64,000 nucleotides of DNA from an uncultured Bacilli bacterium (GTDB taxonomy: Bacteria > Bacillota_I > Bacilli_A > RFN20 > CAG-826): the NCBI GenBank assembly GCA_944368975.1, contig CALVXI010000005.1, forward strand, positions 20,967-84,966. The letters are read 5' to 3'. The notes below the pieces were generated by a model. It was not told where the DNA came from and made no database searches. It was given only the letters and a program-made list of their open reading frames with translations. Positions 13,938 to 29,898 of the stretch are shown here, piece after piece (the first letter of the stretch is position 1; every line of letters begins with the position of its first letter). Made by a program: the position numbers and the translations under genes.

Positions 13938-13964
13938 TTAATTTACATAAAATCTAAAATAAAG

Positions 13965-14000
13965 GCACTTATTAAGAGATTAATAGGTGCTTTTTTATTT
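13965..14000 (+). terminator. Rho-independent terminator of the alpha operon
   Basis: GCACTTATTA / TAATAGGTGC 10-bp stem (one G-U pair), 6-nt loop, then TTTTTTATTTT. Confidence 0.8.
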
Positions 14001-14119: not shown

Positions 14120-16450
14120 ATGTTAAAAAGGTTTATGCTTTGTTCTTTGGGATTATTATTATCCTTATCTTTATGTTCAAATCAATCCAAAACTGTATTA
14201 ATTGATGAGAAACCTAAACTTTTAGAGGAAACAAGTGTAAAATTAAAACTTGATAATAAGGAAGAATTGCTTTTAGAGCTGACCGATGTCGAATTTATTT
14301 CGATGAAAAATAACGAAACAAATTGGTACGAAGCCAATTTATCAAATATTTATTCAAATAAAGTTAACGTCTTAGAATGCTTATTGTTCGATAACGAAAA
14401 AGATTTTTTGGAGATTACTTATTGTGAAAAAAATCAAGATAAAATAGTTAATGATAGATATGAGATTTTAAGTCAAGATATAACAAATAAAATAATAGAA
14501 GACGCTGTAATTCTTAATGAAATTAATGAAGATATTATAGCTAGACAGCGTTCTTATTTATTTCAATTGCAAAATGATTTTTACTTATTTAAAAAAGGCT
14601 TAAATGGTAAAAATGTATTAGAAGAAAATGCTACTAGAATTAAGCAAAAAACATCAACTGATATATTTCTTGATGCTTTTGATCCAGAAAATGGTAATGA
14701 TGTTTTTAGGCTTCTTCCAAAGAATGTTTTTATGGTTACGGATAAAATATCATATTTTGGCAAGGAATTTGGTTTTTATATTAAATCTTTGGAAAGCAGC
14801 ACATCAAATAATATATTTACAAACAAGGGTATTTTTGCTTTAGTAAATATTGAAACAAGGATTCCTAATGCCGGAATAGGTAATAATGGTGAACTTTTAT
14901 ACCGTATTGAAAATCCTCTTATTTATAAATTTACTTATACTTATGATTTTAATACAAATAGCGCAAATATTTTATTTAATGAAAAACTTGAAAAATATTT
15001 TTTAACTAATTTTAAATTCGTTTGTCAAATTGAGAATGAAAATGAATTAAATTTTGGTGATACTAATTATAATGTGGACGAAGATTATGGTGATTATTTA
15101 ACCGGAGTTAGTTATGAGTACAATGCTTGTTCACCTTTAAGATGGGATGAGAATGAATATCCTATTTATGATATAGCCACAACCGCTATAAGTGCGGTGA
15201 CATTTATTGCTGGAGCAGTTTTTCCACCTTTAGAACTCTTTTGTGATGCTATTGACCTTATTTTATTAGGTTTAGATATTTATAAAATAGCTGAAGAGAG
15301 CATTGAGGTATCAAAAAGTAACGAACCATATCGTGAAAAAATTTCATTTGTAAACAATAATTGTCACAAAACTTTAGCTGCAAAAAACGAACAACTATAT
15401 TTATATGGTTGTATGTTAAGGACAATCGCCGGTCAGCCAACTTATGACGATAATTCTATGCCCGCTTTATACGGAGAAGAAAATTGGGTGGAATTTAAGC
15501 CAACAGTTATGTCTGATGCTTATAATCTAAATGGAAGTTCAGAAATGCATTTATACTTTGGCTTTTCTTGCGATTTAGTTGAGGATATTTCCACTAAAAA
15601 TAAATATGAGTTGAGAAAAATCGATACTTTATCTACTATAACTGATTTTGATACATATCAGTCAAATAAGAAAATGTATGATTTAGATCGAAATTTTAAA
15701 ATAGCTGATTCAATACAGCTTAAACCTAATGAAACAAGACGTTTTGCACTAGTAGGTTTAAATAATAAATTAAATTATTTTAATTTTAACTTGAGAGGTT
15801 CTAAATTTAGAGCAAAAGTATTGGGGTATGAGACGTCTGATTTTTCTTCTCAACCTAAAAAAACTGTTTTTGATTATATAGTTGAAGAAGAATTAACCTG
15901 TGGTGCAAGCTTCACATTTAATATTCCAAATGAACTGACTTATGGATTAGAAATTACAAATTTAGCTAATGAATCTGACTTTATCGACTTAGAAATTAGA
16001 TATCCTGGAGAGGAAATAACGAGAACTGACCAGGTAAATCTTTCAAGCATAACTTTAAATCATAAAGTTGAGTCTGATAACTTAAGTATCCTTTCGTTTG
16101 GTATTTTAATTAATTTATTAGATTTAAATTCTTATGAATTTAATGATATTCAAAAAAGTAACATAAATATTACACCTGATAAAAGAGTTGATTTTAAAAT
16201 TTATGATAATAATGTAAAACTTGAAAATGAAGGAAGTGATAATGGTTATTATGATAGTATCATATATAATGAAAAATATACTTTCGACTTAAAAGATTAT
16301 TCAAATAATAGAATTAGAATGCCATTAGGATTAAGGTTTAATGTCTCAAGACTTACAACCGAGGTTTCGATTGAAATATCTATAGATACTATAATTAATA
16401 ATTTAAATTATGTTCCTACTATGAATATTGATGATTTAATTCTAATTTAA
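14120..16450 (+). CDS. Hypothetical secreted/surface protein (776 aa), no recognised domain
   Basis: N-terminal signal peptide MLKRFMLCSLGLLLSLSLCSNQ (possible lipobox LSLC). AAGGAG RBS. Asn/Tyr-rich. One internal hydrophobic stretch (ATTAISAVTFIAGAVFPPLELF). Confidence 0.75.
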   Translation: MLKRFMLCSLGLLLSLSLCSNQSKTVLIDEKPKLLEETSVKLKLDNKEELLLELTDVEFISMKNNETNWYEANLSNIYSNKVNVLECLLFDNEKDFLEITYCEKNQDKIVNDRYEILSQDITNKIIEDAVILNEINEDIIARQRSYLFQLQNDFYLFKKGLNGKNVLEENATRIKQKTSTDIFLDAFDPENGNDVFRLLPKNVFMVTDKISYFGKEFGFYIKSLESSTSNNIFTNKGIFALVNIETRIPNAGIGNNGELLYRIENPLIYKFTYTYDFNTNSANILFNEKLEKYFLTNFKFVCQIENENELNFGDTNYNVDEDYGDYLTGVSYEYNACSPLRWDENEYPIYDIATTAISAVTFIAGAVFPPLELFCDAIDLILLGLDIYKIAEESIEVSKSNEPYREKISFVNNNCHKTLAAKNEQLYLYGCMLRTIAGQPTYDDNSMPALYGEENWVEFKPTVMSDAYNLNGSSEMHLYFGFSCDLVEDISTKNKYELRKIDTLSTITDFDTYQSNKKMYDLDRNFKIADSIQLKPNETRRFALVGLNNKLNYFNFNLRGSKFRAKVLGYETSDFSSQPKKTVFDYIVEEELTCGASFTFNIPNELTYGLEITNLANESDFIDLEIRYPGEEITRTDQVNLSSITLNHKVESDNLSILSFGILINLLDLNSYEFNDIQKSNINITPDKRVDFKIYDNNVKLENEGSDNGYYDSIIYNEKYTFDLKDYSNNRIRMPLGLRFNVSRLTTEVSIEISIDTIINNLNYVPTMNIDDLILI

Positions 16451-16460
16451 TGGGGTTTTT

Positions 16461-17777
16461 ATGAAAAAGAAGTTATTATTATCTATTTTGCCATTATTCT
16501 TATTATCATCATGCGGAGATATTGTTTTAAAACCAGTTAATGAAGAACCTAAAGAGTATCAAGCAAAAACTTTAGATGAGGCAATTATTGAAGCAGCTTC
16601 TAATAATTTAAAAATAAAAGGGACGATGAAATTATATAGGAATAATGGCTATCCTTATGATCTTTATGATATTGAAGCAGTTTATTATCAAAGCGGTGTA
16701 TGTACGATTAATGGATGGCCATATTATGTTGAAAATAATGAAGTTTATAAATTAGCTCCTAGTGTTGGTTTTAATTTTAAATTTCAAAAAATTGAAGACG
16801 ATTATCGTCGATTTATAAATCCTTTTAAATTAGCAATTAAAGAAAATAATGAAGTCGTTGATTATGGAAAAGGCTCTTTATCTCATAGTGTGAATACGAA
16901 ATATTTATCTATAAATGATTATAATGAAATGTATAGTTCAGAATATAATATTGCTTTATTAATGAAATGGAATATTTTTTCTCATTACTTTAATTTCAAA
17001 AATATTAAAAATTATAATTTATATACTAACTTTACTGTATATTATGAAAAAGCAGATTGGATTTATAATTTAAGCAAATTTACTTTTTCATTCAAAAATG
17101 TTTTAGAAGGAAAAGGTGAATTCGTATTAGAATACGGTAATAGTTTAAAAGATATGTCTAAAGATGAAATTGAAGATAATTTTAATGTAAATATTGATTA
17201 TTATGAATATCTAGAAGAATTTACTAAAGATGAGCAAGAATATGTTATTAAAAAAACTACTGATTATTATGGTGGACCAATTAAAAATGAAATATATTTA
17301 GTAGCAAAGAAAAAGGATTTATATTATATAGAAAATTACGATACTAAAAAATATAGAGTGTTTTATAACGATAATGGAAGTGCAAAAGAAATTTATAGTG
17401 TAAATAATGAGTTCCATGTACCTAAAGAGTATTTATTAGATGATCATAATAAACCAATAGATTTTTGTTATTTTGCTAATTCTCAAATTTATAGTGTGGA
17501 TAATTTTAGTGAAAACTGTGTAAATAATGAGTTTAGGATTTCAAGAAAAGATTATTTTAAAAAATATTCTTTGCTCCCAATTAAATATTTTCAAAACGAA
17601 CATTCTTGGATTACAGATACGATTATTAGAAATAATATTTACGAATCTAAAAAATACATGGAATATGGAAATTATGATGGAAATTTAATTCCTAATTATA
17701 TTATAAAAATTTATATAAATAATAGAGAATATGATATAAAAATTCCCTTTTCAATTAATGATTTAATATTCGATTAA
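16461..17777 (+). CDS. Hypothetical lipoprotein (438 aa), no recognised domain
   Basis: Classical lipobox LFLLSSCGD. Starts 10 nt after the previous stop. Confidence 0.75.
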   Translation: MKKKLLLSILPLFLLSSCGDIVLKPVNEEPKEYQAKTLDEAIIEAASNNLKIKGTMKLYRNNGYPYDLYDIEAVYYQSGVCTINGWPYYVENNEVYKLAPSVGFNFKFQKIEDDYRRFINPFKLAIKENNEVVDYGKGSLSHSVNTKYLSINDYNEMYSSEYNIALLMKWNIFSHYFNFKNIKNYNLYTNFTVYYEKADWIYNLSKFTFSFKNVLEGKGEFVLEYGNSLKDMSKDEIEDNFNVNIDYYEYLEEFTKDEQEYVIKKTTDYYGGPIKNEIYLVAKKKDLYYIENYDTKKYRVFYNDNGSAKEIYSVNNEFHVPKEYLLDDHNKPIDFCYFANSQIYSVDNFSENCVNNEFRISRKDYFKKYSLLPIKYFQNEHSWITDTIIRNNIYESKKYMEYGNYDGNLIPNYIIKIYINNREYDIKIPFSINDLIFD

Positions 17778-17845
17778 TATTTATTTAAGATTGCTTTATA
17801 AATTTTATTAATTATAATTTTAAGTATACGGAGGCTAACTTTTTT

Positions 17846-19531
17846 ATGGTTAAGAAGTTAAAGAAATATTTTTCAAAAGAAACAGTTATTTTTGTTGCTA
17901 TTATATTACTTTTCTACATTTTATGGGGAACTGTAAGCTTATTTTGTGATAAAAATAATAGTTTAACTAATAGTGGACATCCAATTTATGCAGTAATAAT
18001 GAATTTATTTCATATTCCATTTACTAATGCTTATGCTGCTACTTGGGTTCAATTTTTAGTATTCATGTTTTTGATATTTGTTACAACACTTGTATTTGGA
18101 ATTGTTTTGATTTATTTATTAAAAAATCATCAAAAAATTACTTGGAAATACTATGTTAGTTTAGGAGGAAGTTTCTTAATTAGCTGTTTTGTTCCAATTT
18201 TATTAAGTTTTGCTAGATCATTTACTTTTAGTGAAGCATCTATTCAATATGTAACATTTACTGGAACAACCTTTTTAATGACATTAATTACTTTAGTTTT
18301 CTTAGTACCAGTCCTTTTATTTATTTACTTTATCATTTATGTTTTAAAGAAATATGTTTTTACAAAGAAAGTATTTGGAGATACATCATTAGAATCTAAT
18401 AAAATTACTTTAGATAATGGTGATATTATTGATGCTAATGAAGAAATATTTGTTGGACTTAAAAATATTGATAATAACTTTACTAGTGAATTATTTATTC
18501 AAGATAACGAATTAACTTTAAAAGAAATAGCTGATAGATTTAGAAATTATTTAGCAGTTAAACACGAATTATATTTTGATATTAAAATAATTAGAGCTTT
18601 TATTGGTGCTTTTAGTGCTAGTAGACTTATCATTTTAGAAGGTTTAAGTGGCACAGGTAAATCAAGTTTACCTCGTTATTTTAGTGAATTTATTAATGAG
18701 GAAGCTTTCTTTGCTCCTGTTCAAGCAACTTGGAGAGATCGTACCAATTTACTTGGTTATTATAATGATTTTAGTAAAACATTTAAGGAAACTGATTTCC
18801 TTTGTCGATTATATAATGCAACATATAGTCCAAATCATTTAAATATAATGGTTTTAGATGAACTTAATCTAAGTAGAATTGAGTACTATTTTGCTGATTT
18901 TATATCGATTCTTGAATATCCTAGCGAAGAATGGAAAATTACTTTAATGCATTTACCACAAAATTATGTTGAACCTGAACATTTAACTAATGGTGTTTTA
19001 AAAATTAACGAAAATACATTCTTTGTTGGAACAGCCAATAAAGATGATTCAACTTATTTAATCACTGATAAAGTTTATGATAGAGCAATGGTTCTTGATT
19101 TTGAAGATCGTAATGAACCATTTGAAGTTATTGGAGGAAGTGATTCAATCTCCTTATCTTATACGAGATTGATGGAATTATTTAAAGAAGCTCAAGAGAA
19201 TAAGGAATATCAATTTAATAAAGAAGATTATGAAAAATTCCGTAAAATATGTGATTTTACTTATGAAACATTTGATATCACTTTTGGTAATCGTATCATG
19301 AATCAAATTAAAGATTTTGTTCCAACATTTGTTAGCTTAGGAGGAACAAAAGAAGAAGCTCTTGATATAATGTTTAGTAAGAAGATTCTTCGTAAAGTTG
19401 AAGGTCGTTATGAAGATTATATTTATAATGGATTATCTAAACTTCTTAATTTAATTAATAAAACATATGGTAAAGGTGTATTTACTTTAACAGAAAGAGC
19501 AATTACTAACTTATTAAAGAAAGTTAAATAA
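17846..19531 (+). CDS. McrB-family AAA+ NTPase fused to an N-terminal multi-pass transmembrane domain
   Basis: Residues ~10-170 contain 4-5 long hydrophobic helices. These are followed by Walker A ILEGLSGTGKSSL and Walker B IMVLDELNLSRIEYYFADFISILE. FFVGTANKDDSTYLITDKVYDRAMVLDF resembles the McrB MNxxDRS signature. GGAGG RBS at 17831. Confidence 0.7.
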   Translation: MVKKLKKYFSKETVIFVAIILLFYILWGTVSLFCDKNNSLTNSGHPIYAVIMNLFHIPFTNAYAATWVQFLVFMFLIFVTTLVFGIVLIYLLKNHQKITWKYYVSLGGSFLISCFVPILLSFARSFTFSEASIQYVTFTGTTFLMTLITLVFLVPVLLFIYFIIYVLKKYVFTKKVFGDTSLESNKITLDNGDIIDANEEIFVGLKNIDNNFTSELFIQDNELTLKEIADRFRNYLAVKHELYFDIKIIRAFIGAFSASRLIILEGLSGTGKSSLPRYFSEFINEEAFFAPVQATWRDRTNLLGYYNDFSKTFKETDFLCRLYNATYSPNHLNIMVLDELNLSRIEYYFADFISILEYPSEEWKITLMHLPQNYVEPEHLTNGVLKINENTFFVGTANKDDSTYLITDKVYDRAMVLDFEDRNEPFEVIGGSDSISLSYTRLMELFKEAQENKEYQFNKEDYEKFRKICDFTYETFDITFGNRIMNQIKDFVPTFVSLGGTKEEALDIMFSKKILRKVEGRYEDYIYNGLSKLLNLINKTYGKGVFTLTERAITNLLKKVK

Positions 19532-19532
19532 T

Positions 19533-20945
19533 ATGATTTCTAATAGTAACATTAAATTTTTAGAGAATTTTAATCTTTCGCTTAAGAAATTTTATCCAAA
19601 TGGAAAAATCAGCTTTTATAATCTTAATGAAAAGATAAAAAAAGAAGAGATTAAAGCTTATGGTAAAACAATTAATCGTATTAATTTTGGATTAATTGAT
19701 GAAATTAATAATGTTATTAAAGAAATTTCTAGAATATGTAGTGCTCCTTTAATTAGTGTTAAATATCTTGATGAGATTGTTAAAATTGAAAGTGCGACGA
19801 ATATAAATGAAGAATCAATAAAAGAAACAATTAATGATTCTAGTTTATGGAAAATTCGAAATCAAAAACCTGAACCTGAAAAGTCTCATAATAATTTAAT
19901 TGAAGAAAATTATGCTACTTATGAAAATTGTTTTATTAAATTATTAATAGATAAAATTGAAGGAATTTTACGTTATTATGAAGGAAGTATTTTTTCTAAA
20001 ATAAAAACTATTGGAAGCTATTTTAATTCTCTTGAATTAGGGTTTTCTAAATTTTCAGTCTTTAATAATTATTCAATTAAAGATTTAACAAAGAAAGCAA
20101 TTTTAGATAAAGGAAACTCAAAATATTTTGAATATTATAAGAAAACCCTGCAAATCCTTAATAAAATTAAGATTTTTAAAAGTTCTTTACTTTATAAAGA
20201 ATGCTCAAGAGTTAAAGATATAGATCCAAATATTCATTTAACTAATATCTTATCAAAAAATTATTCTTATAATTATTGCTTTAAATTTTATATTAATAAG
20301 ATACTTCGTAATTATGAAAAAACTACAGAAATAAATTATTATAATTATGCCTTAATTAGATTACTAATCTCTTTATTCGATAATGGTTTTTCATTTAAAG
20401 AACCTAATAGTGTTTTAACATTATATTCAGACAACGATAATATTTTAAGATTTGATAATATTAAACTTATTAAGAATGGTGTTAATTTAACTATTAGATC
20501 ATTAAATGAATTAGATATCGAATTTGAGACTAATCTTGATTTTAGTTATTATAGTTTTATTAAAAATAAAAATCTTAAAAATAAAAGAGCTAATAAACTT
20601 CATTTAATATTTAGACCAAGTTTATCAAATATTTTTGATTATGAAGAATTAAATAATTTAAATACTTACTACATTTTATTTAATACAGATGGACTATTTA
20701 ATAAAAACATAGTTTTAGTTAATGATAAAAAAGATCTCGACATTACTTTAAATAATTTTGTTAATACATTAGCTTTTATGATTGAAGGATCGAATGAAAT
20801 ATATTCAAAGAAATGTCCTATTTGTGGAAGTGATTTAATTAATGAAGTAGATGGCGATTATACTTGTGAAAATTGTGATTCAAATTATTCTTTATTAAAA
20901 AATAAAAGAAAAGAATTTGTTTATATTAAAAGATTTAATCGTTAA
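19533..20945 (+). CDS. Hypothetical partner of the McrB-like NTPase (McrC position), DUF2357-like box plus C-terminal zinc ribbon
   Basis: Starts 1 nt after the upstream stop. YATYENCFIKLLI resembles the TPENRF(V/L)K box I associate with DUF2357/McrC-like partners. C-terminus has CPICG-x15-CENCD. No PD-(D/E)xK motif recognised. Confidence 0.4.
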   Translation: MISNSNIKFLENFNLSLKKFYPNGKISFYNLNEKIKKEEIKAYGKTINRINFGLIDEINNVIKEISRICSAPLISVKYLDEIVKIESATNINEESIKETINDSSLWKIRNQKPEPEKSHNNLIEENYATYENCFIKLLIDKIEGILRYYEGSIFSKIKTIGSYFNSLELGFSKFSVFNNYSIKDLTKKAILDKGNSKYFEYYKKTLQILNKIKIFKSSLLYKECSRVKDIDPNIHLTNILSKNYSYNYCFKFYINKILRNYEKTTEINYYNYALIRLLISLFDNGFSFKEPNSVLTLYSDNDNILRFDNIKLIKNGVNLTIRSLNELDIEFETNLDFSYYSFIKNKNLKNKRANKLHLIFRPSLSNIFDYEELNNLNTYYILFNTDGLFNKNIVLVNDKKDLDITLNNFVNTLAFMIEGSNEIYSKKCPICGSDLINEVDGDYTCENCDSNYSLLKNKRKEFVYIKRFNR

Positions 20946-20947
20946 AT

Positions 20948-22087
20948 ATGATCTTATATTTTAAAGTTACTAATTTTAAATCAATAAAAGAAACTGAAAT
21001 TTCTTTTATTAGTAGTAATTCTTTAAATACTCACTTAGATCATATTTATCATTTAAACAAATTTAATATTAATAAATTTGGAGTCCTTTTTGGACCCAAT
21101 GGAAGTGGTAAATCAAACTTAATTAAAGCTTTATCAACTTTAAAAGATATAGTACTTCATAAAAATATAGATGAAAAATATAAATATAGTTTTAATAAGA
21201 ATGATTTAAATAATAAAGATTTAGATTCCATATTTAATATTATTTTTTCATTAGAAGATAAAATATATGAATATAAATTAACTTTAAATTTCTTTAATTT
21301 AAAGTTAATTAAAGAAGAACTGAATGAAATTAAAGATGATATTTATAATATCTATTCAGTAAATAATGAAATAAAACTAGATAATTATGAAGCATATAAA
21401 TTCTTTAAAGAACACTTAATTATTTATAGCGCTCGATATAATGTAATTAAAACTAATTTATTTAATAAAAGAGAAATTAATAAATTATTAACATATTTAA
21501 ATTTATTTCAAACTAAAATAATTGATATTAATCTAGTTAATTCCTCTAAGAAAGAGGTTAAAAATTATTTACCACCTTATTTTTATAAAACACTTGATAA
21601 GATGATTAATAGCTTAAATAAAGATGAAACTTTATCTATTAATATTGGGTTTAATTTCTTTTTAATTCATAATAAAAAAGTTAAAAAAATAACCAATAAA
21701 CATGCAAAACTCGATTATTTTATTGAATATCAAGAAGAAAGTGATGGTATTAGTAGATTATTTTCATTATGTTTAATGCTATTTAATATTAAGAAAGATA
21801 ATGTAATTTTAATAGATGAAATAGATAAATCTTTACATCAAAAATTATCAATATTAGTAACTAAATACTTTATTAATGAAGTCAGTAAACTTAATTCACA
21901 ACTTATATTTTCTTCTCATAATACGCTTTTACTTGATAAAGAATATTTTAAAGAAGATGAAATTTATTTCTTAGAAAAATCAAAATTAGAAAATTCTAAA
22001 TTATATTCATTAATTGATTTTGAATTAGATAACAATGAATATTTAAAAAATTATCAAGAAGGACGATATGGAGCAATTCCTAAATAA
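20948..22087 (+). CDS. AAA_21/ABC-like ATPase (AbiLi/RloA-type)
   Basis: N-terminus VTNFKSIKETEISF. Walker A FGPNGSGKSNLIKAL. Signature-like ESDGISRLFSL. Walker B VILIDEIDKSLH. H-loop LIFSSHNTLLLD. Confidence 0.75.
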   Translation: MILYFKVTNFKSIKETEISFISSNSLNTHLDHIYHLNKFNINKFGVLFGPNGSGKSNLIKALSTLKDIVLHKNIDEKYKYSFNKNDLNNKDLDSIFNIIFSLEDKIYEYKLTLNFFNLKLIKEELNEIKDDIYNIYSVNNEIKLDNYEAYKFFKEHLIIYSARYNVIKTNLFNKREINKLLTYLNLFQTKIIDINLVNSSKKEVKNYLPPYFYKTLDKMINSLNKDETLSINIGFNFFLIHNKKVKKITNKHAKLDYFIEYQEESDGISRLFSLCLMLFNIKKDNVILIDEIDKSLHQKLSILVTKYFINEVSKLNSQLIFSSHNTLLLDKEYFKEDEIYFLEKSKLENSKLYSLIDFELDNNEYLKNYQEGRYGAIPK

Positions 22088-22089
22088 AT

Positions 22090-22758
22090 ATGATTTATCC
22101 ATTTTTACTTAATAGAAGTGATTCAACTATGAAAATAAAAAGAAATATTTATTTTTTAGTCGAAGGAAAAAATACCGAACAATATTATTTTGATAGTTTA
22201 ATTAATGAGTCTAGTTTTGATCCTTATGACAATATTAATTTCTTTTCATTTACAAAATTAGGTAATGATGAAGGATTAACTCAACCTCGAAAAATGCTTG
22301 AAAAAGCTAATGAATATGCAAACGATAAGAAAAATAAATTTAATAAAAATATCGATGTAATCTATGTTATTTTTGATTTAGATGTCTTTAATAATGATCA
22401 AAGTGAAATAAATAAATTACTTAAATATAAGAAAAAATATATAAGGTTAGGTTTTTCAAATCCAGCTTTTGAATTATTCTTATTACTCCATTTAGATGAT
22501 GCATATAATAAATATATAAAGAAGAATAAGAAAAATATTTTATTAAATAATTATGTTAACGGTAAAAGATTTGTTAATAATTTAGTTTATGAAATAACCG
22601 GTGTAAACACTAAAAAAAGTGAAAAGGTTGGTCTATTTGCTTTAAATTTTAAAAATGCGATTAAAGAAGAGAAAAAAATAAATGAAAAATTTTCTTATAG
22701 TGGTAGTAAAGTAACTTCAAATATCGGTAAAATTATTGAATCTTTAATGGAAAAGTAA
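22090..22758 (+). CDS. RloB-like (Toprim-like) protein, AbiLii-type partner of the AAA_21 ATPase
   Basis: YFLVEGKNTEQYYF, IYVIFDLD and GFSNPAFELFLLLH match the RloB family pattern (EGxxTE...D.D...SNPxFE.W.LLH). Starts 2 nt after the upstream stop. Confidence 0.7.
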   Translation: MIYPFLLNRSDSTMKIKRNIYFLVEGKNTEQYYFDSLINESSFDPYDNINFFSFTKLGNDEGLTQPRKMLEKANEYANDKKNKFNKNIDVIYVIFDLDVFNNDQSEINKLLKYKKKYIRLGFSNPAFELFLLLHLDDAYNKYIKKNKKNILLNNYVNGKRFVNNLVYEITGVNTKKSEKVGLFALNFKNAIKEEKKINEKFSYSGSKVTSNIGKIIESLMEK

Positions 22759-22764
22759 TATTTA

Positions 22765-22801
22765 TTTACAATTTCTTTACTAAAATTTACTTATCTTTGA
22801 T
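22765..22801 (+). promoter_or_regulatory. Pho-box-like array upstream of pstS
   Basis: TTTACA-5-TTTACT-4-TTTACT-4-TTTGAT hexamers with 10-11 bp periodicity. This resembles the Bacillus PhoP TT(A/T/C)ACA direct-repeat sites. Confidence 0.55.
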
Positions 22802-22857
22802 TTTTTAAGTATCCTTCTTTTAATCATAATTTATGTGTTTAAAAGGAGAAACGAAAA

Positions 22858-23796
22858 ATGAAAAAAATTAGTGGTGTATTCGTATTAGGACTTGCAGCAA
22901 TGACTTTACTTAGCTGTGGTCCACAAGGATTTGATACTTCAAGTGATATTAAACTTTACACAAGAGACACCGATAGTGGTACAAGAGATGGATTTTTTAC
23001 AAAAATTGGATTAGAAAAAGCTAAAGCAGATAACGCTCCACTTAAAACTGGAATTGTTACAGTTGATAGTAATGGAAGTATGATGAATTCAGTTGGAAAC
23101 GATATGTATGGAATTGGTTATATTTCTTTATCAACATTATCTGAAAGCGATGCTATTAAAGGATTAAGCTATAACGGAGTTGAACCAACCGAAGCAAATG
23201 TTTTAAATGAAACTTATGGCTTAACAAGAAACTTTAATTATATTACTCGTAAACCTGGAGATTATTCTAGTACTGATGTTGAAGCTGTTGTTAATGCATT
23301 CATCGATTATACATTCTCTTTTGAAGGTTATACAATCATGAAAGGAGAACACGGTATTGTTGAAATCCCATCAGATGTAAAACATTGGTCTGAAATTGCT
23401 AGTCAACATGCTATTATGCAAAGAACTGATTTAAATTTAACAATTAATGTTGGTGGTTCAACTAGCGTTAGTGGTATGGCTCAAGCATTAACTACTGCTT
23501 TTAGTAGTTTATTCCCATCAGGATCAACAGTTAAATTTAATCATAATCATACTGGAAGTGGTGATGCTTATAAAAATACTCAAGGTGGAAAAGGCTTAGA
23601 TATTGGTTATTTAAGTAGAGAATTAGAAAGTAGTGAACAAGCTGTGGAAGGTACAAGCGGTTATATGTGTACTGATGCTATTGTTACAATTGTAAATAGC
23701 GAAAATCCATTAGATAACATTACAAATACTCAATTAGTTGATATGTATGGTCTTAATGGTGAAACAGTTACTTGGTCACAATTAATTACTGAATAA
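22858..23796 (+). CDS. pstS: Phosphate ABC transporter substrate-binding lipoprotein PstS
   Basis: Lipobox LTLLSCG. DSGTRDGF and GSGDAYK motifs typical of PstS/PBP-like_2. First gene of the pst operon. Confidence 0.9.
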   Translation: MKKISGVFVLGLAAMTLLSCGPQGFDTSSDIKLYTRDTDSGTRDGFFTKIGLEKAKADNAPLKTGIVTVDSNGSMMNSVGNDMYGIGYISLSTLSESDAIKGLSYNGVEPTEANVLNETYGLTRNFNYITRKPGDYSSTDVEAVVNAFIDYTFSFEGYTIMKGEHGIVEIPSDVKHWSEIASQHAIMQRTDLNLTINVGGSTSVSGMAQALTTAFSSLFPSGSTVKFNHNHTGSGDAYKNTQGGKGLDIGYLSRELESSEQAVEGTSGYMCTDAIVTIVNSENPLDNITNTQLVDMYGLNGETVTWSQLITE

Positions 23797-23850
23797 TTTA
23801 CAATTTCTTTACATATATTTACTTTTCACTGATTTTTACATATTACATTA
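23797..23850 (+). promoter_or_regulatory. Second Pho-box-like array between pstS and pstC
   Basis: TTTACA-5-TTTACA-4-TTTACT, then further TTACA/TACAT repeats. The first ~27 nt nearly copy the pstS-upstream array. Confidence 0.45.
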
Positions 23851-23867
23851 AATTGTAAAGTAATGTC

Positions 23868-24938
23868 ATGAAAACGTTAAACGAAGAAAAAGTAATCAAA
23901 AACTCAAATAGAAAGGCTATGATTGATAAAATTGTAGGCTTTCTTTTTTTGTTTGTGTGTATTATAAGCGCTAGTATTATCATTTTTACAATCTTTTTTA
24001 TAATTTATGAAGGAATTAATCCATTTGTAAATCAATACACACTAGATGATGGGACGATTGGAAATCAAAATTTTTGGGGATTTTTAACTGGTTTAAGTTA
24101 TGGCGAAAGTAATTATGGTAGTTTATTTTTAGTAATTAACACGCTTTATGTAACTTTATTATCAGCAATAATTTCTATTCCAGTATCAATTTTAACAAGT
24201 ATTTTTATAACAAGAATTGCTCCAAAAATAATTGGTGAAGTATTTAAAACTGGAATTGAAATATTAGCGAGTGTTCCTAGTGTAATTTATGGTTTATTTG
24301 GAATGGGCGTTATTTGTCCTCTTATAAGAGATTTAGCTTATGGTATTGGAATTCAAACTTCTGGCGGATTAAGTGTTATTAGTGGAGCGATAGTTTTAGC
24401 AATGATGTCGATTCCAACTATTACTTTAGTTAGTATCACCTCTATTCAAAGTGTTAGTAAAAGTTTTATCGAAGGAAGTTTAGCTTTAGGTGCTACAAAT
24501 AGTGAAACAAACTTTAAAGTTGTTCTTAAAGGAGCAACAAGCGGAATTATTTCTGGAATTATTTTAGGTATAGGGAGAGCCTTAGGTGAAGCTACCGCCG
24601 TAAGTTTAGTTATAGGTAATGCCTTTAGTGGACCTACATTTAATATTTTTGGTATATCAAGCACTTTAACTTCAATTATGATGTTAGGTATAGGAGAAGC
24701 TACTGGATTAAGTTATGACATTAGATTTAGTCTAGGTATTATGTTAATGCTTATTATTGTCATTATTAACTTAATATTAAATTATGTTAAGAATAAAATT
24801 ACTAATCCATTTAAGAAAGAAAATAAAGTATTAGCTTATGTTAAAGATGGCGTAATTTATTTAAAAGCTTACTTTAATAAAAATAAAAATAACGATAATG
24901 AGGAAAATAAAAATGAAACTAAAGATGAAAATAAGTAA
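23868..24938 (+). CDS. pstC: Phosphate ABC transporter permease PstC
   Basis: 356-aa polytopic membrane protein with the EAA-like loop EGSLALGATNSETNFKVVLKGATSGIISG. Confidence 0.9.
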   Translation: MKTLNEEKVIKNSNRKAMIDKIVGFLFLFVCIISASIIIFTIFFIIYEGINPFVNQYTLDDGTIGNQNFWGFLTGLSYGESNYGSLFLVINTLYVTLLSAIISIPVSILTSIFITRIAPKIIGEVFKTGIEILASVPSVIYGLFGMGVICPLIRDLAYGIGIQTSGGLSVISGAIVLAMMSIPTITLVSITSIQSVSKSFIEGSLALGATNSETNFKVVLKGATSGIISGIILGIGRALGEATAVSLVIGNAFSGPTFNIFGISSTLTSIMMLGIGEATGLSYDIRFSLGIMLMLIIVIINLILNYVKNKITNPFKKENKVLAYVKDGVIYLKAYFNKNKNNDNEENKNETKDENK

Positions 24939-26175
24939 TCCTTTTAAATTTGACGATGGAATGAGTAGAAAAAGAAGATTTAAAGATATTTTTCGTAATG
25001 CTTCAACTTTAATTTTCTCTTTATTAACTTTAGTTACACTTATTTATATTATTGTTTACATTTTTGCAAATGGAAGCTCTACTTTAAGTTGGCAATTTAT
25101 TACAAGTGATTATCAAGAAGTAAGTACATCATTATATTCACGTAGCGATTTAAATTTTGATGATCGAACATTTGATTTTAATGAAGATGGTGGTGAAATC
25201 AGTGAAAAATGGGGTGTTCAATTAGTTGATGGTGAAAATAATTTAGGCGAACACGTCGTTTATTTTTTAGAAGTAGCTGATAATTCTTACTTTAATGAAT
25301 TAGTTATCGGTTCTAATACTGCTACGGAAACATATAATAACTATGACGGACAATATATTAGTAATCTTTCTTTAAGAGTTGATGAACAAATTATTACATT
25401 AAGTTCAAGAGATAGTGCTAGTGATATTGTAAATTATCTAGATCAATCGAATGAAATAATGTTTATGGAAATATGCACTGTTGGTGGTGGCATTAGAGGG
25501 AGTTTATTAACAACAATTTACTTAATTTTAATTACATTAATAATCGCTATACCTTTAGGAGTTTGTGCAGCAATATATCTAGCGTTATATGCTAAGAAAA
25601 ATAAATTTACAATGATTTTAAGAAGTTTAATAGATATGACAAGTGCAATACCTTCAATTATTTTTGGTTTTATTGGCGCTCTTGTCTTTATACCATTTAT
25701 GAATGCTGTGAGTGGAAGTAATGGAGGAAGTATTCTTAGTGGTGCTTTAACTTTAACCATTATGTTAATTTCAACAATCGTTAAAACGACTGAAGAAAGT
25801 ATTATTGCTTTACCTAAAGGTTATATGGATAGTTCATTAGCGTTAGGAGCAAGTAGAACTGAAACAGTATTTAAAATAATTTTACCTAATGCTTTACCTG
25901 GTATTATTACATCAATTATTTTATCAATTGGTAGAATTATTGGAGAAAGTGCAGCATTAGTATTTGCTATTGGTGTTTCAATTCAAGATAATATTAGTTT
26001 AACTGGATCATCAACGTCACTTGCAGTACATATTTGGAGTTTACTTAAATTAGAAAATCCTAATTATGATGCAGCATGTGCAATCTCAATAATTATTCTA
26101 TGTATAGTCTTAGTTTTATGCTTATTAACAAAGATTATTTCTTATAGATTTAATAAGAAATTTAAAAGGAGCTAA
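24913..26175 (+). CDS. pstA: Phosphate ABC transporter permease PstA (large extracytoplasmic loop)
   Basis: EAA loop [26 protein letters not shown]. The ORF track start is 24898, but ATG 24913 is better spaced from GAGGA. ~150-aa loop after TM1. Confidence 0.9.
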
Positions 26176-26180
26176 TAAAA

Positions 26181-26939
26181 ATGGAAGAAAATCAAGTCGT
26201 ATTTAGTGTTAAAAATTTAAATTTATATTATGGAGATAAAAAAGCTTTAAATAATATTTCTTTAGATATTTATAAAAATAAAGTTACTGCTTTTATTGGT
26301 CCTTCTGGATGTGGTAAATCAACATTTTTAAGATGTTTTAATCGTATGAATGATTTAATTGAAAACTGTAAAGTTGAAGGAGAAATTCTACTTAATGGAA
26401 AAAATATTTTAGAAGTAAATCCAATATATTTAAGAACAAAAGTAGGAATGGTTTTTCAGCAGCCAAATCCTTTTCCAATGTCAATCTATAACAATGTTAT
26501 CTATGGGTTAAAATGCCAAGGAATTAAAAATAAAAAAGAATTAATGGAGATTTGCATAGATTCTTTAGAAAAAAGCGCCTTAATTAATGAAGTTAAAGAA
26601 AGATTAAAAGATAATGCTTTAGCTCTTAGTGGTGGTCAACAACAACGTTTATGTATAGCTAGATGCATCGCTTTATCTCCAGAAGTTATATTAATGGATG
26701 AGCCTACAAGCGCTCTTGATCCTATCGCTACAAGTAAAATTGAAGAATTAATTAGAGAACTTAAAAAAGATTATACAATAATAATTGTTACTCATAATAT
26801 GCAACAAGCAACTAGAATTAGTGATTATACTGCTTTCTTTATGCTTGGTGACTTAGTTGAATATAATAAAACAGAAGAATTTTTTGCTCATCCTCAAGAT
26901 AAAAGAAGTGATGATTATATTAGTGGTAAATTTAGTTAA
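26181..26939 (+). CDS. pstB: Phosphate ABC transporter ATP-binding protein PstB
   Basis: Walker [10 protein letters not shown], signature [13 protein letters not shown], Walker [12 protein letters not shown]. PstB-like N-terminus. Confidence 0.95.
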
Positions 26940-26953
26940 TAAGGAGAAAGTTT

Positions 26954-27586
26954 ATGCTTAAAGATGAATTAATTAATGAACTAAAAATTAAATGTATTAA
27001 GATGATGGAATTAACATTTAATGATGTTAATATTGCTTTAGAAGCAATTAAAAATCATACAACTAATAAAGTTAATGATGATACAATTGATAATTATCAT
27101 ATGGAAATTGAAAGTGAATGCTTAAAAATTCTTCTAAAAGAACAAGTTTATTCTAAAGATCTAAGAATTGTTACAGGTATTTTAAAATTAGTAGATGATA
27201 TTGAAAGAATTGGTGATCATGCTGAAGATTTATTATGGTGTAATTCAAAATTATCTACTGAAGAAAAGTTTATCGAAATTAAAAATTTAGATATTTTACT
27301 TAGTGAAATTAGTGAAATGGTGACATTAACTTTAAAAAGTTATCTTACTGAAGATATTGAGTTAGCAAATAAATTAATTCAAAGCGATGATAATATTGAT
27401 AAATTATATTTAAAAGTTTTAGATGAATTAGAAGAAAAGAAAACATTAGCAAAAGATCAAAATTTAATTATTTATGATACATTAATAAGTAAATATTTAG
27501 AAAGAATTGCTGATCATTTAGTTAATATTAATGAATGGATTGTGTATATCAAAAATGGTTATTATAAATCGAAAGTGATATTATAA
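26954..27586 (+). CDS. phoU: Phosphate signalling regulator PhoU
   Basis: 210 aa with the duplicated motif ERIGDHAEDL / ERIADHLVNI. Confidence 0.9.
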   Translation: MLKDELINELKIKCIKMMELTFNDVNIALEAIKNHTTNKVNDDTIDNYHMEIESECLKILLKEQVYSKDLRIVTGILKLVDDIERIGDHAEDLLWCNSKLSTEEKFIEIKNLDILLSEISEMVTLTLKSYLTEDIELANKLIQSDDNIDKLYLKVLDELEEKKTLAKDQNLIIYDTLISKYLERIADHLVNINEWIVYIKNGYYKSKVIL

Positions 27587-27590
27587 GATT

Positions 27591-28253
27591 ATGAAAAAAT
27601 TAATTTATTCAGTAGAAGACGATAAAGATATAGCCTATATTATCAAAATAGCTCTTGAAAATGCTAACTATGAAGTTAAAAGTTTTGATAATGGCGAAGA
27701 TTTCTTAAAAGAATTTAATAAAGTTAAACCTAACTTAATTCTTTTAGATATGATGTTACCTAAAATTCAAGGTGCAGATTTGCTTAAAATAATTCGTAAA
27801 GATGAAGCTAATAATGATATCGATATTATTATCATAAGTGCTAATAAATTAGTTAGTGATAAAGTTAATGGATTAAATTTAGGAGCTGATGATTATATTG
27901 CTAAGCCATTTGATTTACTTGAACTTGTTAGTCGAGTTAATGCTAGATTTAGAAAAAATAAATCTAAAATATATAAAATTAAAGATATTTTAATAAATGA
28001 AGAAAAAAGATTAGTGACTAAGCAAGATGAAGTAATAAGATTAACAAATAGTGAATTTGATATTTTATTAACTTTAGCAAAAGCTAATGGTGATATTGTT
28101 AGTAGAGAATCTTTAATGAATACTTTATGGGGTGAAAGTGAAGCTTATGAATCAAGAACCATCGATATGCATATCGGTGCTATAAGAAAAAAACTTAAAG
28201 ATAAAGATATAATTTTAACAATACATGGACATGGGTATCGACTAAATGAATAA
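27591..28253 (+). CDS. OmpR/PhoB-family response regulator
   Basis: Receiver domain (LILLDMMLP, ADDYIAKPF) plus winged-helix C-terminus (LTNSEFDILLTL...RTIDMHIGAIRKKL...GHGYRL). Confidence 0.9.
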   Translation: MKKLIYSVEDDKDIAYIIKIALENANYEVKSFDNGEDFLKEFNKVKPNLILLDMMLPKIQGADLLKIIRKDEANNDIDIIIISANKLVSDKVNGLNLGADDYIAKPFDLLELVSRVNARFRKNKSKIYKIKDILINEEKRLVTKQDEVIRLTNSEFDILLTLAKANGDIVSRESLMNTLWGESEAYESRTIDMHIGAIRKKLKDKDIILTIHGHGYRLNE

Positions 28254-29898
28254 AAAAAGTTTAGTTTTGCAGGATTTTTTATTTTTTATAACTACTTTTT
28301 TAATTTTTATTATCTCGATAAGTTTAGTTTTAACTTATTCAAGAAAAGAAAGTGATGATAATTTAGTTCACTATTCTGAGATTGTTTTAGCTTTGTATGA
28401 TGAAGAAAATAATGACTATAGTGAAGTTGATAAAACTTTTAATGAATCAATAGATATAAGAGTAACTATTTTAAACGGAAGTAATGGAGATGTTATCTAT
28501 GATAATAATCCTAACTATAATCAAGAAGAAAATCGTTTAAATGAATTTCTTAATTATGCTGATAAAGGAATTTATGAAAAATACTCTTTAACTTTAAATG
28601 AAAAAATGTTTTATTTAGTTAGAAGTGATGATTCTAACTATATTCGTGTTGGTATTTTAAAATCTGAGGTAATGGAAGTTACAAATAATATAGCTTTATA
28701 TGGATCTATTAGTTTAATTTTATTAAATGTTATTTATTTTATTCTTTCTTATTTATACTTTAAAAAGAATATTGATACGTTAAAAGAAGAAGTAATTAAG
28801 CTTGATAGTTTAGTTAATCCACAAAGTTTTATTAAAGATTTTGATATTCAAGATCTTAAAAATACTATGTCAAAATCTTATACCTTAATTAATGAACAAA
28901 TTAATGAAGTTAAAAGTGAAAAAGAAAAATATGAATTTATATTAAATAATATTTCTGAAGGTTTCATTGTTTTAGATCTTAATTACAATATTATTCAGAT
29001 TAATAAATATGCCTTAAATATATTCAATAAGAATTTTAATGAAGTATATGGTCATAATATTGTTTATTTATATAATGCTTCAAATTTATTAAATAATATT
29101 GAGAAAATGGATAAAACATTTAAATCATTTAAAGAGAAAATAGATGAAAGAATTTATGAATTTGAAATTAATAAAATTACATTTAATAATATTAATCTAA
29201 TTGCAATCTTATTTATTGATATAACAAATGAAGAAAATACAGAGATAATGAAAAAAGAGTTTTTTGCTAATGCTTCACATGAATTAAAATCACCTTTAAC
29301 TTCAATTATCGGATATCAAGAATTAATTAAAGAAGGAATAATTAAAGATAATAACGAGATTAAAAATATAAGTGAAAAAACTCTTAAAGAATCTATAAGA
29401 ATGAAAAATATTGTTTTAGATATGCTTGAATTATCGAAACTTGAAAGTAAAGAAGTTAAAGAAATTGAAAGACTAAATTTAAAAGAAATTATTGAAGATA
29501 TAATTAGTTCAAATGAAGTCTTAATTAAGCAAAAAAATATCAAAATCACTGCAAATCTCAAGGATTTTTATATAAATTCATCTTTTGAGGATATTCAAAA
29601 GTTATTATCTAATATTATCTCTAATGCGATAAATTATAATAATATTAATGGTGAAATAGAGTTAATTTTAAAAGATAATTCATTTATATGTAAAGATAAT
29701 GGAATAGGAATTAAAAAAGAAGATTTACCACGAATTTTTGAAAGATTTTATCGAGTTGATAAATCTAGAAGTAAGGAAAATAGTGGCACTGGTTTAGGTT
29801 TAGCAATTGTAAAACATATTTGTCTTAATTATCATTATAAAATTAAAGTTGATTCTAAATTTGGTTTAGGAACCACATTTACTATAATTTTTAAATAA
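28246..29898 (+). CDS. PhoR-like sensor histidine kinase
   Basis: Two TM segments. PAS-like region. H-box FFANASHELKSPLTSI, N-box NAINYN, G boxes DNGIGI and GTGLGLAIV. Overlaps the regulator gene by 8 nt. Confidence 0.88.
   Translation: MNKKSLVLQDFLFFITTFLIFIISISLVLTYSRKESDDNLVHYSEIVLALYDEENNDYSEVDKTFNESIDIRVTILNGSNGDVIYDNNPNYNQEENRLNEFLNYADKGIYEKYSLTLNEKMFYLVRSDDSNYIRVGILKSEVMEVTNNIALYGSISLILLNVIYFILSYLYFKKNIDTLKEEVIKLDSLVNPQSFIKDFDIQDLKNTMSKSYTLINEQINEVKSEKEKYEFILNNISEGFIVLDLNYNIIQINKYALNIFNKNFNEVYGHNIVYLYNASNLLNNIEKMDKTFKSFKEKIDERIYEFEINKITFNNINLIAILFIDITNEENTEIMKKEFFANASHELKSPLTSIIGYQELIKEGIIKDNNEIKNISEKTLKESIRMKNIVLDMLELSKLESKEVKEIERLNLKEIIEDIISSNEVLIKQKNIKITANLKDFYINSSFEDIQKLLSNIISNAINYNNINGEIELILKDNSFICKDNGIGIKKEDLPRIFERFYRVDKSRSKENSGTGLGLAIVKHICLNYHYKIKVDSKFGLGTTFTIIFK

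Follow-up and report, generated by a model that had tools for sequence, protein, structure and literature searches.

McrBC is the textbook GTP-driven restriction nuclease, and the locus described here raises the question of what an McrBC-like gene pair is for when one of its products appears to sit in the membrane and the other seems unable to cut DNA. The pair lies in a 64-kb stretch of contig CALVXI010000005.1 from an uncultured Bacilli bacterium, the whole of which was analysed and is called the window below. There, an open reading frame (ORF) of 561 aa for an McrB-like nucleoside triphosphatase (NTPase; 17846-19531, + strand) is followed by one of 470 aa for an McrC-like partner (19533-20945, +) that starts 1 nt after the NTPase stop, lengths and spacing that an earlier note on this DNA had given correctly. 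In our reading, to which we assign a probability of about 0.85, the two genes are an McrBC-derived pair of the NxD branch, made of a membrane-anchored McrB-type NTPase and a nuclease-less, zinc-ribbon McrC-like protein. As for its role, judged from the gene context, we favour at slightly under even odds (0.45-0.5) a nucleotide-driven motor or switch in the membrane that takes part in a process of the envelope or of a surface structure, and not a DNA-cutting restriction enzyme.

A Probable McrB-Type NTPase with a Membrane Anchor

The McrB assignment follows from an alignment in motif register, from the failure of a control and from the signature N-K-D-D. When the family profile was aligned with E. 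coli McrB (HHalign), a match over 161 columns was obtained (probability 80.8%, E 1.3e-5), in which Walker A (G266-S273, GLSGTGKS; 18641-18664, +), Walker B (D338-E339; 18848-18862, +) and the sensor/signature stretch (N398-K-D400-D401; 19037-19048, +) of the window protein stand opposite GPPGVGKT, IIDEINRAN...FGE and MNTADRS of McrB, respectively, which bears out the three motifs proposed in the earlier note. In the same register are the helix after Walker B, ...F.(E/D)....(L/M)E, and the segment G-x-x-N-x-x-D-x-S. All catalytic motifs are invariant across 54 NTPase homologues, and so is the stretch T396-A-N398-K-D400-D401-S-T that holds the signature. For GTPases of the NxD branch, an NxD 'usually followed by E or a second D' has been described (PMC11090510), and the invariant N398-K-D400-D401 agrees with it, a motif that can also be read as NxxD.

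The control was the same family profile aligned with E. coli RavA, which gave a probability of 3.8% over 40 columns. It bears on a different explanation, already named as an alternative in the earlier note, in which the NTPase would be a housekeeping AAA+ chaperone of the MoxR/RavA type with an unrelated partner and no relative of McrBC. Foldseek, which ranks MCM, NorQ, RavA and dynein AAA+ proteins above McrB as matches of the NTPase, speaks for it, and so does the Pfam family AAA_5, common to MoxR-like proteins, which was matched by 54/54 aligned family members and, below threshold, by the window protein itself (E 0.0068). However, the contrast between the RavA and McrB alignments, a partner family that is DUF2357 and not VWA, and McrC as the best PDB fold of that partner leave this explanation largely refuted and very improbable.

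The N-terminal part of the NTPase (aa 1-177; 17846-18376, +) is predicted as a transmembrane (TM) module of four helices, found throughout the family. Kyte-Doolittle hydrophobic segments lie at residues 8-36, 61-95, 102-128 and 135-173, and the AlphaFold2 model (mean predicted local distance difference test, pLDDT, 84.5) places helices at 11-34, 64-93, 100-125 and 130-177, the last of which runs on as a stalk into the cytoplasm; of the four to five hydrophobic helices that had been claimed, the membrane region is thus real and the count is four, not five. On reading the sequence, the N-terminus, loop 2 and the stretch after the fourth helix are K-rich, which fits an N-in/C-in topology with a cytoplasmic AAA+ domain. 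A flexible linker follows (aa 178-200; 18377-18445, +; pLDDT <50 at residues 176-195), longer and Glu-rich in homologues of ~610 aa, and then the McrB-type AAA+ domain with its helical lid (aa 201-561; 18446-19531, +), supported by the HHalign match to McrB. No DNA-binding Pfam domain was found in the NTPase, whose N-terminus consists of the four TM helices. The proposal of an McrBC-derived pair with a TM module in place of the canonical McrB DNA reader stands.

A Partner of the McrC Type with No Recognisable Nuclease

DUF2357 is the N-terminal domain of McrC and serves there to plug the McrB ring and to activate it. Its Pfam model was matched by 37 of 66 divergent homologues of the partner (best E 1.4e-11, several above the gathering cut-off), and the best PDB fold for the AlphaFold2 model of the window partner (pLDDT 91.3) is McrC (6hz4_M, rank 1, E 0.019; 6ut6_G, rank 3, E 0.14). 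On these two results, the matches of homologues and the fold, rest both the McrC identity and the DUF2357 assignment, since the window partner itself had no direct Pfam, PADLOC or PDB sequence match other than its zinc ribbon. The Pfam comparison proposed in the earlier note therefore came out for the family, and for the window proteins only as the sub-threshold AAA_5 match. An HHalign comparison of the partner profile with the single E. coli McrC sequence failed (probability 0.4%), PDB chains searched with both proteins, by sequence and by profile, gave generic P-loop and zinc-ribbon matches and neither McrB nor McrC, and for the pair the PHROGs search gave nothing useful and the NCBIfam search no match.

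The DUF2357-like domain would occupy about aa 60-160 (19710-20012, +). Among the 66 homologues, P115, Y130-E131-N132, C428, C431 and C448 do not vary, C445 hardly does, and the Y-E-N (19920-19928, +) lies within the McrC-like box that had been pointed out in this protein, which is confirmed. It is followed on the same strand by a helical middle, with T237-N238 and Y246 conserved, by a beta-rich domain (aa 275-425) where the conservation analysis found no conserved catalytic residues, and by a C4 zinc ribbon (CPIC-x13-CENC; 20814-20876, +), present as announced, with 12 residues after CPICG and not 15.

Within aa 275-425, no position keeps an acidic or basic residue in >=60% of the homologues and, on this basis, a PD-(D/E)xK nuclease site is judged absent from the partner, in agreement with the earlier note, which had found no such triad. 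That the pair is a conventional type IV restriction enzyme with a nuclease diverged beyond recognition, its beta-rich domain or zinc ribbon cutting DNA, would find some support in the Foldseek alignment to McrC, which covers the full target length, so that the beta-domain may be a PD-(D/E)xK-derived fold. Yet, besides the missing conserved residues, there is no DNA-reading domain, and a membrane-tethered ring cannot form the McrC-bridged double ring of E. coli McrBC (PMC6624300), and we hold such a hidden nuclease to be highly unlikely.

Two departures from the usual partner were observed among homologues. Some (P0186, P0189, P0270; 942-1123 aa) carry a C-terminal GNAT acetyltransferase fusion (Acetyltransf_3, E about 1e-18), which may point to an effector or reflect a merged gene call. 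In addition, stand-alone partners of the Christensenellales type (loci L081 6286-8658, L079 1968-4325 and L085 1836-3791) have one or two extra C-terminal repeats of ~130 aa past the zinc ribbon.

The Family and Its Usual Gene Context

The family is very large, with over 7,500 protein clusters: 7,534 of 8,000 candidates scored matched the NTPase, almost all of them unnamed, and, with one genome scanned per species, it was found in at least 588 species, most of the genomes being metagenome-assembled and labelled Bacilli, Mollicutes, Acholeplasmatales, Anaeroplasmataceae, Christensenellaceae or Clostridia. The partner family comprises 967 representatives at 50% identity, obtained by an exhaustive representative search, which was needed because a word-indexed search gave just 3-10 partner homologues.

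For the context survey, the ORFs of 89 related loci were clustered; NTPase and partner are adjacent in 84 of them, and context fractions are given out of 85. In 63-65/85 loci, about three quarters, the pair lies in a conserved cluster of 8-12 genes (for instance, L008 5469-17311, L006 and L032), which begins with two to seven paralogous proteins of ~254 aa and a signal peptidase of ~342 aa, goes on with the NTPase and the partner, and then has an ABC (ATP-binding cassette) ATPase, a 12-TM permease, a membrane-anchored protein of ~813 aa and a lipoprotein of ~369 aa. The matches of the ~342-aa protein identify it as an archaeal/SipW-type signal peptidase I (TIGR02228 score 52.0 against a cut-off of 51.85; SipW E 8e-16). 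The ~254-aa paralogues share a K/R-rich, hydrophobic N-terminus with a GF[AS]xW motif, which we infer to be a dedicated signal for this peptidase, and they do not match the TasA/camelysin Pfam models. The ABC ATPase and the permease form an ABC-2-type exporter, and the ~369-aa lipoprotein has Gly-rich and Listeria-Bacteroides repeats. The SipW-type peptidase beside secreted paralogues with a special N-terminal signal in common recalls tapA-sipW-tasA of B. subtilis, a likeness of the family cluster and not of the window. That operon is not known to have an McrBC-like pair or ABC-2 exporter.

The envelope or surface role proposed for the pair is drawn from this home context of SipW-type peptidase, secreted paralogues, ABC-2 exporter and surface proteins. 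In the earlier note, homologues had been expected close to defence genes; no enrichment of that kind was found in the related loci examined, about 63 of 85 being those of the surface cluster.

One locus, L015 (Bacillales UBA4855), holds two pairs in tandem (106-~4500 and 7247 onward), of which the upstream one is very divergent (NTPase ORF of 923 aa, at the contig edge) and the downstream one is normal and within a cluster.

A Stand-Alone Clade and a Window Copy under Purifying Selection

In a neighbour-joining tree, the pairs without the cluster form one clade nested inside the family, which consists of the window, L001, L002/3, L007, L029, L033, L034, L057, L063, L076, L079, L081, L084, L085 and L087. 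The window copy is thus a member of a derived clade of stand-alone pairs, which are bordered by housekeeping genes (CCA-adding enzyme, PfkB kinase, UPRTase, ABC-F protein and SIS-domain protein, and tRNA synthetases in L001) or by genes for surface proteins (lipoproteins, metallophosphoesterases and collagen-like repeat proteins), and a defence neighbour occurs within the clade in the window lineage only.

The absence of the SipW and ABC neighbours from the window could also mean that the pair is a decaying remnant of the cluster with no present function. This is contradicted by purifying selection: against the 98%-identical strain (L091), the ratio of nonsynonymous to synonymous substitution rates (dN/dS) amounts to 0.07 in the NTPase gene and 0.10 in the partner gene, so that both genes are maintained by strong purifying selection. 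With all catalytic motifs intact and a whole stand-alone clade persisting in several orders, a remnant is the least probable of the explanations considered.

Defence or Envelope

Immediately after the partner come genes for proteins of 379 aa (20948-22087, +; PADLOC AbiLi E 1.1e-58, Pfam AAA_21 E 8e-22) and 222 aa (22090-22758, +; PADLOC AbiLii E 2e-19, Pfam RloB E 4e-26), by these matches a complete pair of AbiLi and RloB-like AbiLii, a known two-gene defence system. The four genes had been taken as a single operon. They are better described as two systems: AbiL adjoins the pair in L002 and L091, both close relatives, it is missing from L001 although the pair sits there at the same place upstream of pstS, and it was absent beside the pair in every other related locus examined. 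AbiL is therefore an independent neighbour, outside the conserved unit.

The presence of AbiL nonetheless gives weight to the explanation proposed in the earlier note, that of a membrane sensor or effector acting by abortive infection or by blocking entering DNA. Stated more fully, a membrane-located McrBC derivative would sense entering DNA or a perturbation of the envelope and block entry or trigger abortive infection, possibly together with AbiL, and so protect against phages or plasmids. In favour of this are the descent from a type IV restriction enzyme, the tight packing with AbiLi and AbiLii, no terminator lying between, the occurrence of the same four genes in L002 and L091, the similarities to the PADLOC candidates PDC-M26A and, on some partners, PDC-S18 that are given below, a zinc ribbon that could bind nucleic acid, and a divergence between strains that across 16.3-22.8 kb exceeds that of the flanks. 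However, no nuclease or other effector domain was found in the pair, L001 keeps it at the same locus without AbiL, about 13 stand-alone loci have no other adjacent defence gene, and most of the family belongs to the surface-structure cluster. Moreover, an unusually high conservation, with 43-60% identity across orders, and a stable position are atypical of defence cargo, the GC content at third codon positions (GC3) is not anomalous, and the partners never match PDC-M26B, the second component of a PADLOC candidate considered below. The abortive-infection or entry-block explanation is weakened because the homologues lie in the surface cluster or beside housekeeping and surface genes, and we regard it as doubtful, if deserving of serious attention.

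The envelope reading has to be set against a number of observations as well. Sequence HMMs (hidden Markov models) of the cluster proteins found no SipW peptidase, secreted paralogue, 12-TM permease or large surface protein in the 64 kb of the window, so that, for this copy, ancestry and unrelated lipoprotein neighbours are what ties it to the envelope. Only 2 nt, with no terminator between, separate the partner from AbiLi, and L002 is arranged alike. The NTPase matches PADLOC PDC-M26A (E 2.5e-38), over the GTPase core only (positions 278-448 of a 724-position model), the extra repeats on the L081, L079 and L085 partners match the PADLOC single-gene defence candidate PDC-S18 (E 4e-15), and other systems of the NxD branch have been predicted as defence (PMC11090510). 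On the side of identity, the same holds for the Foldseek ranking of the NTPase given above, for the weakness of the partner's McrC fold match, with its E of 0.019, and for a comparison with the published clade (next section) that was made by description. All of these count against our reading. We still prefer a membrane motor or switch of the envelope, at the odds stated at the outset.

Comparison with Known Systems

The earlier note had not recognised the architecture as a named one. It fits, by description, CoCoPALM, an McrBC-like clade of the NxD branch which received its name in a single paragraph of Bell et al. 2024 (PMC11090510). As published, CoCoPALM has a GTPase with one 'FtsB-like' TM helix (HHpred E 1.2) and a coiled coil, coiled coils usually occur on both the McrB and the McrC homologues, and there is an association with the signal peptidase family; in the supplementary table, the representative GTPase RHC33375.1 stands next in accession to RHC33374.1, of the signal peptidase family (PMC11090510). 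Shared with it are an NxD-type McrB-like GTPase with an N-terminal membrane segment, an McrC-like partner from a branch where nucleases are often lost, the occurrence in gut Bacillota and, in most relatives of the window pair, a signal-peptidase-family gene immediately upstream, as in RHC33374.1/RHC33375.1. In contrast to the single helix and coiled coil of the published form, the window NTPase has four predicted TM helices and a short disordered linker, the AlphaFold2 models show no long coiled coil in either protein, and the window copy and its clade are without signal peptidase and the other cluster genes. In addition, no FtsB/DivIC Pfam match was found in the 54 NTPase family members. What is new here is a derived two-gene form of an architecture flagged and named in 2024, without signal-peptidase association or coiled coils.

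With E. coli K-12 McrBC, the pair shares the AAA+ core, with Walker A, Walker B and Nx(x)D in register, and a DUF2357 partner immediately downstream, whereas it differs by the membrane anchor in place of the N-terminal DNA-binding domain, by N-K-D-D where E. coli McrB reads N-T-A-D-R-S, and by a partner that lacks the PD-(D/E)xK nuclease and has a zinc ribbon besides. CoCoNuT types II and III (CnuB/CnuC) belong to the same NxD branch, with a CnuC whose nuclease is inactivated or missing and which has zinc-ribbon CPxC motifs (PMC11090510), but long coiled coils and a constantly associated HEPN or other nuclease are CoCoNuT features, neither of which was found in the pair. The likeness to the PADLOC candidate PDC-M26 lies in the GTPase core that matches PDC-M26A; for PDC-M26B, no partner of the window or its relatives gave a match at E<=1. 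A literature search on PDC-M26, on follow-up of CoCoPALM and on SipW together with McrB found nothing further.

The Locus in the Window

The pair and AbiL form a run of four packed genes (17846-22758, +) with spacings of 1, 2 and 2 nt, and a scan of the + strand from 15198 to 23000 turned up no terminator-like site, which makes their co-transcription plausible. A putative promoter, read by eye and tentative, consists of TTGCTT (17791-17796, +) and TATAAT (17813-17818) with a 16-nt spacer; a consensus promoter scan did not list this candidate at 17791-17818. A ribosome-binding site, GGAGG (17830-17834, +), lies 11 nt 5' of the NTPase ATG.

Two genes for predicted lipoproteins, of 776 aa (14120-16450) and 438 aa (16461-17777), with lipoboxes LSLC and LSSC and without a Pfam family, precede the run, and no terminator separates them from the pair. 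A strong terminator-like hairpin with a 15-bp stem (13961-13994) stands just 5' of them, 3' of rplQ, at the end of the ribosomal-protein/rpoA operon. Conservation of both lipoprotein genes is confined to the 98%-identical strain and does not extend to L001 or L002. The possibility that they are divergent counterparts of the 813-aa and 369-aa cluster proteins was rejected, as the cluster HMMs miss them and they are not conserved in L001 and L002.

On the 3' side of the run is the pst operon, pstS-pstC-pstA-pstB-phoU, and then come a response regulator and a histidine kinase (22858-29500 in all). In the window, L001 and L002 alike, pstS is found downstream of the pair, and this common pst synteny makes the locus of the pair, between the lipoprotein genes and the pst operon, a stable chromosomal site. 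In a composition test for horizontal transfer, total GC was lower in the McrC-like and AbiLi genes, with the lowest value of the region in AbiLi (17.7%), and GC3 was similar to that of the neighbours, AbiLi included.

Compared with L091, the segment 16300-22850, which covers the second lipoprotein gene, the pair and AbiL, diverges by 2-5% at the nucleotide level (dS 0.11-0.17), and the ribosomal-protein and rpoA genes by about 0.2-1.5% (dS 0.015-0.045). The divergence profile rises gradually, without a sharply bounded block, and the raised values may reflect expression-linked constraint rather than recombination.

A Proposed Assembly and Its Meaning

In the solved McrBC complexes, McrB forms a hexameric ring and a finger of McrC in its pore stimulates hydrolysis (PMC6624300, PMC7680126); in E. 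coli McrBC, two such rings stand back to back, bridged by McrC (PMC6624300). By analogy, the window NTPase would form a hexameric ring under the membrane, tethered by 24 helices and flexible linkers. Because of this tether, only the cytoplasmic face would be open to the partner and an McrC-bridged double ring would be ruled out. The beta-finger of the partner would enter the ring from that face and switch hydrolysis on, with the beta-domain and zinc ribbon left free for ligand binding. In the clade of the window copy, the pair would work without SipW, ABC and surface-protein neighbours, with AbiL alongside as an independent system. A more complete scheme can be drawn, in which the motor of a restriction enzyme serves anew as a membrane machine: a GTP-driven McrB-type ring with 24 TM helices, gated by a nuclease-dead, zinc-ribbon McrC, powers or licenses the export or assembly of SipW-processed surface-fibre subunits in most members, the stand-alone clade being an autonomous membrane switch; it is speculative and, taken as a whole, unlikely. 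If true, the pair would represent a type of secretion/assembly or envelope-surveillance ATPase that is new and has no characterised precedent.

In this pair, strong selection has preserved the motor together with its activator, both parts that handle DNA, the reader and the nuclease, have been lost, and a membrane anchor has been gained. The role of the pair would tell what McrBC does without its nuclease. Among the uncharacterised gene pairs of gut Bacilli, Mollicutes-like bacteria and Christensenellales, the family is one of the more abundant, and the stand-alone two-gene form found in the window is its simplest version to clone. Its study could reveal a new surface-fibre or envelope system in the poorly cultured gut microbiota.

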